In this document: positions 1-3,000 of the stretch, piece after piece | Layout of the letters: the number at the start of each line of letters is the position of its first letter | How positions within the stretch are numbered: the stretch's first letter is position 1 | Virus record (IMG/VR): IMGVR_UViG_643348545_000013 | Span: 1 to 57,943 of that record | DNA length: 57,943 nucleotides | Source: a virus | Taxonomy: Duplodnaviria > Heunggongvirae > Uroviricota > Caudoviricetes | Strand: one strand, 5' to 3' | Position numbers: made by a program

Positions 1-3000
1 TCCCCGGTTTCCCTGTCTTTTCCCGGACAGCAGTCAACAGTGACGCCTGCCCGGATATCTGTTAACGAATCTGACGAATACTGCCGCCAGATTACTGAAG
101 CAACACAGCTGCCGCGGTAAAAAGAGCCACCACCCCACCCAGCCACACAAACAACATGAAACACATTGCGCCTGTGGTGTAACGCTTTCTCCCGTATCTC
201 CGGTCTCTGTCTTTGTTCATCATCTGCACCTTCTGAATCATCAGAAGATGCCGCGCATCCGGCAGGACCGCCATCAGGCACCAACAAGCCGTCTGACACT
301 CACACCATACAGCCCGTTTTTCGCCATTCCCGTATACAGAAAGGTATTCACCGTCTTTGTGTTAATACCCATTTCACTGGCAAGGCGACAGGGTCTCGAC
401 TGGCGGTAGACATAACCGAACATCACCACCATCTCTGACATCGTCAGCGGGCGGGCAGCACTGTTATACGTCCAGACGCCGTTGTGTATGGCATCACTTA
501 TCTGCTCACCATCACGAAGCAACTCCGCATCCAGTTGCAGAAAATGACGCCCCTGGAACATACACCGCATCAGCCTGCCCAGCAGGCCATCACTGATTAT
601 CAGCCAGGATTCGTCAAAGTCCGGGATATAACGGCGGTTCTCCGGCAGGAAAAACTCCCTCGCCAGTATCACACTGTGTTCCTTCAGCAACTGTTGCAGT
701 CCATATTCCAGGTAGCGGTTCCTTGTGGCCAGAATTACCTTCATCGCAGCACCTTCCTGTTTTTATGCCCCATGAAAAACGGCAGACCAGAGTCCTGCGC
801 CTGCCGTCATACTTCATGTCACCTTCAGCAATTAAAACTCGAAGTTCACACCAACGTTCCAGGAGGCATCGCCATCACTGAATGCCACGCCTGCTTTCGC
901 TGCGGTCTGCTCGTTGAAGCGGTAACCCACACCCACCGCCAGTGCCTGCTGGTCGCTGTAACCACCAACCGCTGCCGTGGCGTTGAATTTACCCACACTG
1001 TACGGCTGGAACAGACCTGTCAGGGCCGCAGACTGTGCTGCTGCTCGTTTCATTTCCTTATGGTTTTCATTAATCTGGCGCTGCTGGCTGTCCAGACGTG
1101 CTGAATGTTGCTGCAGCGTACGGGTATTGGCTGCAATCGCCTTGCTGTTTTTCTCAATGGATTGCGTGTTACGGGTGACACGGCCATCAATGGCACCAAC
1201 TGCTGCATCAATACGGTCAGTACGACCAGACAGGGCCACCAGACCATCGTTAACAGAAATGGTGTTCTTTGCACCTTCTGCACGGGTCAGGGTGCCATCA
1301 GAACTCACACCAACCAGTGTGCGGGATTCGACTTTTGCAGCTGTTGCAGCAGCCGCAGCATCAATCTTGTCGGTACGCGTGGTCAGTTTACCAAGATTTT
1401 GCTTCTGCGCTTCAAGCTCGCCTTTCTGAGCATCAAGCTTGCCTTTCTGAGCTTCAAGCTCATTCGCAACAATGGTGGAGTTGGCGGCCTCCCATGCCAG
1501 ATAGTGCTGTAAAGGCATGTATTCTTTTATTTCACTCGAATCTGCTGCCACATTTCCATTCTCATCCAGGCCGACGTTGGTTTTCATCTGCTGGATTGCT
1601 GAAACGCGGTTGTACAGGTCACGGATATTCTGTTCTGTCAGGGGGGCGCCGTTACTGCTGCCAACAGTATTTGATGCCGCAGCCTTCATGAAATCATGAA
1701 CTTCTTTATCATAAACAGTAAATGTTGTTGAACCGTCTGCGGAGGTAATTGTAACATTACCATTACCATCTATTTTACTGAGAAGTGGAATCGGCTTATT
1801 TCGCTCTTTTTCCACATAACCTGACTTACCCCAGTCAATATGCGCCGTATTATTATTTTTATTATAAAATATTTTAAAAACCCCCCCATAGCCACCGTTA
1901 CCATTTAAGGCAGAATAACTATCCTCGACGACGTTATCACCAGCCATAATATCAAAGCTAACCCCAAACAAAACACCTGCCATTGCCGCAGACAAAACAG
2001 CCTTTGTAAATTTCTTGCTCATGTGGTATACCCTATAAAATTATTTGTATACAAATAAAACAGTTCAACATCGGATATATAAAGAAAATCTGATGTCTCG
2101 CCGCTCTCATGAGCTTACTCCTGAAGAAATTCCGAATTTTAATATGAAGTTTATCGGAATTTCCTTACTATAACGTCGGTGATATCACGTTCGCGAAGGG
2201 ATATCCGCATTACGACTGGCCTGCCACTTATGCTGTCTCTTTATTCATCAACAATTTGTATACGGTTACATATTTAATTGTGAAGTTAGTCACAAAAAGA
2301 AGAAAGTCAAATAATCAAATTGTGCTTAACTGTTTACATCAGCACAATCTGATGACCATTGAAGGACGCACTAAATTATTTTCAGCAATCCCTCAGCCTA
2401 CGAAAATTCTGTATTTGATGATTGTTTTATTTGCTCTCTTTTTATGCAGCCATTCTGTTGCTTATAAAAAAGCACCACTATCCGCGCCCTCATCTCAATA
2501 TCTTTGTCGCCGGATAAAAATAACTATCAACCACAAGTATCATGCTCTCGGGGAGCGCGCACTCCCCCACTTTTTTTATCCCTGACAGGGTCAGGAGGCC
2601 GTTGCATCTCCTTTAATTATCATTGCCAGATTATTTCCTCGACCTGAGTATTCTTTATTTAGCCATAGCTTTGTAGCAAGGGGCTGGAGCGCCCCTCTTT
2701 TTTTCACCTGTCAGCCATGCCGACCTTATACGCCAGTATAGCTTCCGCATCATCCAGCGCTTCAATCTCTTTTTTCATCGTGCGCTGTCTGACATGAATT
2801 TCCAGACCTTTGGTAAACATCGCCTGCTCTGCAGCAGCACTCAGAGCAATCAGTGTTTCAGCGTCCATCGGTACGTCATTATTGTCCGCATCCGTCCAGA
2901 AAAACGCCTCCGGCAGTATTCCTGCTTTCGCGGCAGCCACTGACGGCTCAAGACGCGCCTGTGTCTGTTTGCCGTAGTCCCATTTACGCCCATTGTGCTC

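Follow-up and report, generated by a model that had tools for sequence, protein, structure and literature searches.

An eibA-type cassette at the tail-fibre end of a P-EibA-like lambdoid prophage, with a candidate LuxR-type regulator gene beside the adhesin gene

The Eib proteins are prophage-borne trimeric autotransporter adhesins, for which non-immune binding of immunoglobulin G (IgG) and IgA, serum resistance and aggregation have been reported (PMC5450701, PMC13534694, PMC7568254). Escherichia coli ECOR-9 carries four eib genes. The cassette of its prophage P-EibA (GenBank AF151091; Sandt & Hill 2000) is annotated in the order orf-191A, eibA, orf-156A and orf-60A, plus stem-loops, and the eib, orf-156, orf-60 arrangement is annotated again in P-EibC and P-EibD (AF151674, AF151675). 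Expression of the ECOR-9 Eib proteins and of EibG is regulated very similarly (PMC5450701). The papers on Eib expression in the searchable literature describe static-growth and oxygen-dependent regulation and name no regulator. Here we describe an Eib cassette in IMG/VR record IMGVR_UViG_643348545_000013, a caudoviricete sequence of 57,943 nucleotides (nt) that we refer to as the window, and whose numbering is used for all coordinates.

We observed that window positions 2-2800 align over their full length with AF151091 at 95.9% DNA identity. Gene order, spacing, stem-loops and flanks are alike, and the autotransporter gene eaaA of AF151091 begins where window position 0 would fall, abutting position 1. 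The encoded proteins are 88% (EibA), 98% (ORF-156A) and 100% (ORF-60A) identical to the ECOR-9 products. The 396-amino-acid (aa) protein has its exact match outside ECOR-9, in E. coli O81 strain ED1a (CAR08668, WP_012601613, UniProt B7MX52), and its UniProt name is "Immunoglobulin-binding protein from prophage P-EibA". Both the gene order and the position in a lambdoid prophage are those of an Eib prophage cassette. We therefore identify the region, at a probability of roughly 0.9, as the eibA cassette of a P-EibA-like lambdoid prophage, carried as cargo after the tail-fibre genes; no evidence contradicting the identity of the locus was met. The cassette is thus already known, having been described in 2000 (AF151091, AF151674, AF151675) and its identical protein named in UniProt. 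A first, sequence-only reading of the window had placed three open reading frames (ORFs) here, and the ORF listing has all three, on the minus strand, where that reading put them. The features of the cassette are as follows.

832-2022, minus strand: eibA allele for a 396-aa trimeric autotransporter adhesin, predicted to bind immunoglobulin, with probable signal peptide, 'Eib region', coiled-coil stalk and YadA anchor
1012-1335, minus strand: stalk segment, aa 230-337, which includes the predicted IgG Fc-binding region; 108/108 residues identical to EibA and 100/108 to EibD
835-1011, minus strand: YadA-type beta-barrel membrane anchor, aa 338-396
775-808, minus strand: intrinsic terminator hairpin with U5 between eibA and orf-156, from a terminator scan; also a stem_loop in AF151091, AF151674 and AF151675
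274-744, minus strand: ORF-156, candidate atypical NarL/FixJ-like regulator with a LuxR-type helix-turn-helix (HTH); receiver-like aa 1-90, four-helix HTH aa 100-153
92-274, minus strand: ORF-60, small single-pass membrane protein with a conserved core at aa 18-60 (phrog_9340 over aa 18-60)

The sequence-only reading had proposed an Eib-like trimeric autotransporter with a signal peptide, coiled-coil stalk and YadA-type anchor. For the autotransporter and its anchor, this is borne out by the comparison with EibA and by a profile search, in which Pfam YadA_anchor (PF03895) matches residues 338-396 over profile positions 1-60 of 60 (E 6.9e-17, 61.7 bits versus a cut-off of 22.7). These residues are 57/59 identical to EibA and 59/59 to EibD, and a sequence search of the PDB recovers the YadA anchor structure 2LME (E 1.3e-18). 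The same search matches the EibD stalk crystal constructs 2XQH (1.7e-31) and 2XZR (5.6e-27); the coiled-coil stalk is nearly identical to the trimeric EibD stalk of these structures, and trimerisation is predicted on that basis. Residues 1-27 (MSKKFTKAVLSAAMAGVLFGVSFDIMA) are 27/27 identical to EibA and can be read as a signal peptide, with an n-region that is basic, a core that is hydrophobic and an end that resembles A-x-A. From residue 183 to residue 396 the protein is almost the same as EibA. Most of the differences from ECOR-9 EibA fall within residues 28-65 and 117-182. This 'Eib region' has no solved structure (PMC7568254); in the window allele, 4 aa are inserted behind the signal peptide, and ~40 of the residues from 28 to 182 are substituted. 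With 88% identity to EibA versus 56-57% to EibC and EibD, the protein falls in the EibA subtype, and its sequence marks it as one of the alleles of EibA, an immunoglobulin-binding trimeric autotransporter.

EibC and EibD are 504-511 aa long and have a YadA-like beta-roll head and neck, both missing in the window protein, just as a YadA-like head is absent from published EibA (PMC7568254). No Pfam YadA_head match was found in the 396-aa protein. YadA of Yersinia has in common with it the C-terminal anchor and the plan of signal peptide, passenger and anchor, whereas the YadA head repeats and collagen-binding head are not present here. The NCBIfam YadA_autotrans model aligns only at the C-terminus and scores 70.7 against a cut-off of 750, so that the protein is not a YadA orthologue. 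The Cla/Yal adhesins of Shiga toxin-producing E. coli (STEC) negative for the enterocyte effacement locus (LEE) are related prophage- or island-borne E. coli trimeric autotransporters that mediate aggregation (PMC13534694). Cla has neither the Asp needed to bind IgG nor the N-terminal domain of Eib, and lies in other genomic contexts, whereas the window protein keeps both the Asp and the Eib context.

This Asp is D272. Together with A273, it aligns with D387-Y388 of EibD and D391-A392 of EibG; the Asp is printed as 'D378' in PMC13534694, and the Asp adjoining Y388 in the EibD sequence is D387. In EibG, the D391A mutation abolishes IgG Fc binding, the position of EibD Tyr388 is naturally Ala as in the window protein, and binding persists after deletion of almost the whole passenger (2026 study, PMC13534694). 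Since D272 is kept and the stalk is identical to that of EibA, binding of IgG Fc by the 396-aa protein is strongly predicted. By analogy with its family, the protein would be exported through Sec by means of the 27-residue signal peptide, and three C-terminal YadA-type anchor segments would form one outer-membrane barrel that lets the passenger out as a coiled-coil stalk of three chains. The EibA-identical stalk segment would then bind IgG Fc (and IgA) non-immunologically, and this binding would make cells resistant to serum and cause them to aggregate with each other. Recombination may diversify the 'Eib region', the variable part at the N-terminus.

A strong intrinsic terminator at 775-808 would end eibA, followed by two genes that overlap by one base. 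The hairpin has a folding energy of -30.7 kcal/mol (z -3.27) and none of 200 shuffled sequences was as stable. The first of the two genes, orf-156, had been called a LuxR-type regulator from the sequence, and this assignment finds support in structure and profile comparisons. No ORF-156 match was obtained in Pfam or NCBIfam at E <= 0.1, which leaves the protein below the family thresholds for a GerE/LuxR-type HTH. PHROGs place it in phrog_6585, of "unknown function". Its family comprises 44 clusters in a collection of 5.8 billion proteins, where every named source is E. coli and labelled hypothetical or uncharacterised, and no canonical LuxR protein is among the 37 profile matches to ORF-156 in 1.84 billion representatives. 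A 21-member ORF-156 profile searched against PDB sequences gave four weak matches (E 0.07-0.4), all of them LuxR/GerE-type HTH proteins. With hhalign, the family profile matched a GerE sequence at 79.8% probability over the HTH.

We then consider the predicted structure. The AlphaFold2 model built on the 21-member alignment (predicted local distance difference test score 88.9, predicted template modelling score 0.84) consists of a four-stranded alpha/beta domain followed by four helices, that is, a GerE-type four-helix C-terminal fold with a preceding receiver-type domain. In a Foldseek search against the PDB, the top 44 matches are all full-length NarL/FixJ-type regulators (best E 3e-4), including FixJ, RcsB, StyR, EvgA, DesR, VraR, LiaR, VpsT and DosR. 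As modelled, the fold is NarL/FixJ-like, but the protein is atypical. ORF-156 has the two-domain layout and fold of NarL/FixJ regulators such as RcsB, EvgA and FixJ, but it is ~50 residues shorter, has a four-strand receiver and has no partner kinase. The phospho-acceptor pocket is incomplete: T7/R8/N9 stand in place of the acidic pair after strand 1, strand 5 and the Lys are missing, and only D52 after strand 3 is conserved. Therefore, ORF-156 is probably not phosphorylated and would act independently of phosphorylation. The ratio of non-synonymous to synonymous substitution rates (dN/dS) is 0.07-0.23, which indicates purifying selection, and so we regard ORF-156 as a functional gene. Its most likely role is DNA-binding transcriptional control. 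RgdR, a small prophage regulator with an ED1a orthologue, was considered as a relative and proved to be an unrelated 99-aa protein. A review of O-island regulators holds nothing resembling ORF-156, and our literature search found orf-156 and orf-60 mentioned in no searchable paper.

ORF-156 and ORF-60 share base 274 (TGATG), an arrangement compatible with translational coupling; in a lineage of 69% identity, ORF-60 follows without the overlap. The coupled hydrophobic 60-aa ORF noted at first sight is thus present, and a dN/dS of 0.17-0.34 indicates purifying selection on it as well. Its conserved core is limited to the last 43 residues, a correction to the sequence-only reading, and combines a basic N-terminus and one transmembrane helix, with RKRYTxGAMCFMLFVWLGGV as the invariant part; some annotations start at an internal Met, giving 42-57 aa. 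A family search returned 29 clusters, whose named sources are all E. coli and labelled hypothetical.

Next, we examined the DNA upstream of eibA. The region 2023-2700 had been described as AT-rich, with palindromes that suggested dedicated regulation. The description of its composition holds as far as ~2550 and fails for 2550-2700, where GC content is 0.43-0.49, with GC-rich hairpins. GC content is 0.35-0.43 over ~1500-2550, so that the 5' third of the eib gene is AT-rich too. The palindrome does exist, and it extends further than first described: TTATTTGTATACAAATAA is perfect over 18 bp at 2041-2058. Its perfection is specific to this allele and due to one base, by which it also differs from P-EibA; most other alleles examined read ...TACAGAT.... 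The motif GTATACARAT occurs 3 times in the window versus 0.06 expected, and the named upstream boxes within 2023-2200 are GTATAC and GGAATTTC, with box positions at 2043-2055 and 2124-2133. We identified the following elements, of which those without coordinates are placed relative to the ATG.

2043-2055, minus strand: conserved box TTTGTATACA[A/G]AT, ending 20 nt before the ATG; here the centre of the 18-bp palindrome; 29 loci
~-50: block ATCAGAxTTT
~-75: block GGAAT(A/T)(T/C)C(C/T)T (GGAATATCCT-like), here the 3' arm of the 2126-2163 stem-loop
~-135: block GTAAG..ATCCTAA
2126-2163, minus strand: stem-loop with arms GAAATTCCGA and TCGGAATTTC, folding z -2.6; a stem_loop in AF151091
2033-2110, minus strand: possible 25-aa upstream ORF (MRAARHQIFFIYPMLNCFICIQIIL) that has AGGAG as its Shine-Dalgarno sequence and stops 10 nt ahead of the eibA ATG; uncertain

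Four short non-coding blocks precede all the Eib-family genes examined and are conserved across six lineages that have diverged (including loci L005, L006, L015, L031 and L038). In each of 29 loci there is exactly one TTTGTATACA[A/G]AT box, upstream of the adhesin gene, and the box is absent from ORF-156 loci that have no adhesin gene. EibC and EibD, which have the same orf-156/orf-60 tail, also have the GTATAC box 20 nt before the ATG, while their upstream regions, ~360 bp long versus 680 bp here, are for the most part unrelated apart from the conserved blocks. When eibA-type loci are compared with each other, ~400 bp on the proximal side are almost invariant and the distal part contains insertions and deletions (a 117-bp insertion, an 11-bp duplication). 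The upstream ORF has related peptides in two other lineages (HQIFFI(Y/H)PM; C(F/S)(I/V)CIQII). As a conserved leader peptide it was rejected, the eibC version being 12 aa long, the eibD version out of frame and the DNA box invariant. Because the box is invariant whether or not the upstream ORF reads through, it is more likely a DNA element than coding sequence.

Other candidates in this region were set aside. A sigma-70 promoter TTGAAC-17-AATAAT (2068-2040) scores no better than chance, and its transcript would start within or just past the Shine-Dalgarno sequence. The element GGAATATCC is spaced N3 here, against the GA-N4-TC of the RcsB box, and is not claimed as one. On the plus strand, a 77-aa hydrophobic ORF (2352-2585), which precedes plus-strand terminators, is 77, 46 or 25 aa long in near-identical alleles and was not accepted as a gene; the two 49-aa ORFs in the annotation of phage PhiR5_2 show the same lack of conservation. 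No known RNA family matched within 1-2800, even at E <= 1. The conserved blocks, which together take up ~140 bp and of which the GTATAC palindrome is one, probably govern eibA expression, and the surrounding AT-rich tract would be a plausible target for H-NS silencing. The conserved blocks support dedicated regulation and are consistent with the alike responses of Eib proteins to growth conditions (PMC5450701). The original suggestion of dedicated regulation stands to the extent of these non-coding blocks before all Eib-family genes examined, and no further.

In order to relate ORF-156 to its neighbours, we scanned IMG/VR for ORF-156 loci and obtained 49. At 22 of these, ORF-156 lies ~90 bp downstream of the end of a YadA-anchor gene, and in adhesin-linked loci ORF-60 follows wherever the contig reaches far enough. 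Another 12 have a 67-68% identical ORF-156 homologue with neither an adhesin gene nor ORF-60, and the rest are fragments. A 67% homologue lies in a prophage of the enteropathogenic E. coli (EPEC) strain E2348/69, between the tail-fibre genes and nleA (L048 4001-4543; NC_011601 1471936-1474956), where the RefSeq annotation of the neighbour reads "type III secretion system effector NleA". A 55% identical homologue (L011-L014 6001-6495) lies beside hpaBC and a PerC-family gene, again with no adhesin gene and no ORF-60. The nleA- and hpaBC-linked homologues are all annotated as hypothetical. The ORF-156 family thus recurs in cargo regions and is not exclusive to Eib.

Several observations weigh against an eibA cassette that functions and is controlled as outlined above. 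Within its first 180 residues the protein departs from ECOR-9 EibA at ~40 positions, and immunoglobulin binding, serum resistance and trimerisation of this allele are predictions carried over from EibA, EibD and EibG. A sigma-70 promoter scan gave 4 sites versus 3.7 expected, no more than chance; judged as a moron, an autonomous unit, the cassette combines a clear terminator with promoter-like sites no commoner than chance. In addition, linkage alone does not imply a dedicated eib role for ORF-156, because its homologues occur without an adhesin gene beside nleA and hpaBC.

The explanation of ORF-156 and ORF-60 that survives best, possible if somewhat short of probable, is that they form an independent cargo unit that shares the eib slot and acts on host genes or on others acquired horizontally, in the way that further prophage-encoded regulators of E. 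coli cross-talk with virulence or stress regulons of the chromosome. Members of the family adjoin different cargo (Eib adhesins, nleA in EPEC E2348/69 and the hpaBC/PerC island), ORF-156 shows 98-99% conservation next to an Eib head region of wide variation, and a terminator separates it from eibA. There is also precedent for global prophage regulators, such as RgdR (PMC3378721). However, ORF-60 joins ORF-156 only in adhesin-linked loci, which suggests a tie to the adhesin context.

Alternatively, ORF-156, maybe modulated by ORF-60, would be a dedicated regulator of eibA, whose dimer binds TTTGTATACAAA and/or AGGAATATCCT-like blocks and activates or de-represses the AT-rich, H-NS-prone promoter. 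This is doubtful on present evidence, although it would fit the position of ORF-156 directly after every Eib-family adhesin gene (22 prophage loci plus P-EibA, P-EibC and P-EibD), its LuxR-type fold, the palindromic blocks at fixed distance from the ATG in lineages with diverged flanks, and the similar regulation common to different Eib proteins (PMC5450701). On the other hand, the boxes track the adhesin gene and not ORF-156: the loci with 67% and 55% homologues have no adhesin gene and no box, and those homologues adjoin nleA or hpaBC. Moreover, orf-156 lies downstream of a strong terminator. Eib prophages moved into K-12 were reportedly poorly expressed and needed the unlinked ibrAB in trans (Sandt, Hopper and Hill in J Bacteriol, 2002), which argues that ORF-156 is not a sufficient activator. 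Somewhat less likely still is the wider proposal of an unrecognised regulator family, founded by ORF-156 and restricted to E. coli, whose members are atypical NarL/FixJ-like proteins, kinase-less and with a truncated receiver. It would occupy the cargo slot of lambdoid prophages beside virulence cargo (Eib adhesins here, nleA in EPEC) and, together with ORF-60, would control eib via the conserved palindromic boxes. If true, this proposal could explain the static-growth and oxygen-dependent regulation of Eib proteins.

We consider it very unlikely that ORF-156 and ORF-60 are a toxin-antitoxin, abortive-infection or superinfection-exclusion pair, in which an HTH protein would be followed by a small membrane-active peptide. 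An antitoxin-then-toxin operon would look similar, with two genes in this order that overlap by one base; ORF-60, of ~43 aa, is basic and has a single hydrophobic helix, and the pair is located in a prophage cargo region. However, neither protein matches any PADLOC defence model, ORF-156 homologues occur without ORF-60, and the two-domain, response regulator-like fold of ORF-156 is not that of a small antitoxin.

Least likely of all is that the 396-aa protein is an Eib-related, Cla-like adhesin for aggregation or adhesion only, as the divergent N-terminal 180 residues and the Ala in place of the Tyr of the EibD Asp-Tyr pair might suggest, for residues 183-396 are nearly those of EibA, an IgG Fc binder, the essential Asp is retained, and EibG binds Fc with the same Ala and after near-total passenger deletion (PMC13534694).

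The placement of the eibA cassette at the tail-fibre end of the prophage, also proposed from the sequence, agrees with its flanks: a tail fibre gene and a DUF4376 gene lie directly upstream of eibA in the same orientation. The lambdoid prophage genes in the window are those for a cI-like repressor, replication protein O, terminase, tape measure, tail proteins L and J and a tail fibre. The flanking features are these.

2550-2577, plus strand: intrinsic-terminator-like hairpin with T7, opposite in direction to eibA; conserved in all eibA-type upstream regions
2679-2706, plus strand: second terminator-like hairpin with T7, abutting the DUF4376 stop codon; terminator scan
2704-3285, minus strand: ORF-191 homologue with DUF4376 (Pfam 2.9e-19), tail-fibre or tail-fibre-assembly-like; last tail gene before the cassette
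3302-4783, minus strand: collagen-repeat tail fibre gene (phage_tail_N plus collagen repeats)
56657-57943: integrase, at the prophage end opposite the cassette

The DUF4376 product appears mechanically as a 235-aa ORF (2704-3411, minus strand) that partly covers the end of the tail fibre gene. The annotated length of homologues is 191-193 aa, and phrog_1141 matches over positions 4-193 of 194; because these annotations and the profile show ~193 aa, the protein probably starts at the internal Met (2704-3285). Terminator-like hairpins with T-runs are frequent in 1-2800, with 7 found versus 2.7 expected. Three are on the plus strand in PhiR5_2, locus L003 has plus-strand hairpins at 5443-5470, 5612-5639 and 5743-5770, and the 117-bp insertion of some alleles adds one more. 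We infer that the plus-strand hairpins would halt antisense transcription from the cargo side into the tail operon; their role might be to terminate a plus-strand RNA that no annotation shows, or to insulate the tail genes.

Elsewhere in the window, a complete general porin gene lies among the tail genes as a second cargo gene (13072-14235, minus strand; 387 aa; Porin_1 E 1.8e-139). A Bro-N/P22 antirepressor-type gene (10108-11022, minus strand) adjoins a full-length match to the sar antisense RNA (11024-11090, plus strand; RF00262, 69 bits), and the two constitute a P22 immI-like module inside the tail gene region. Rfam matches at gathering level are to STnc100, isrK plus C4 antisense RNA and the lambda cIII thermoregulator, in the regions 38664-38868 (minus strand), 42565-42752 (minus strand) and 50589-50647 (plus strand). 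A weak tRNA-like match of 32.6 bits at 39700-39769 (minus strand) receives no call from ARAGORN. A 665-aa protein (36060-38057, minus strand) has DUF1737, SASA (sialate O-acetylesterase) and DUF6645 domains, a set that we take to be that of the NanS-p-type esterases of lambdoid and Stx prophages.

Among 5,426 complete E. coli genomes, 167 have some match to the 2.8-kb query and 11 match at least 80% of it. The ORF-156 protein is identical in three ED1a accessions (CAR07874, CAR08268 and CAR08667), so that the ED1a genome probably carries about three Eib-type cassettes.

In conclusion, the locus itself is ordinary: the cassette has been in GenBank since 2000, and earlier functional work on EibA covers its part in aggregation and biofilm formation as well as Fc binding. 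The locus is a textbook example of how a prophage carries a host-interaction factor, for serum resistance and antibody binding, in a commensal strain. What goes beyond the searchable literature is the modelled fold of ORF-156, a cryptic LuxR-type regulator candidate that curated models miss, its recurrence beside nleA, and the conserved upstream boxes, which offer concrete targets for studying how Eib expression is switched.

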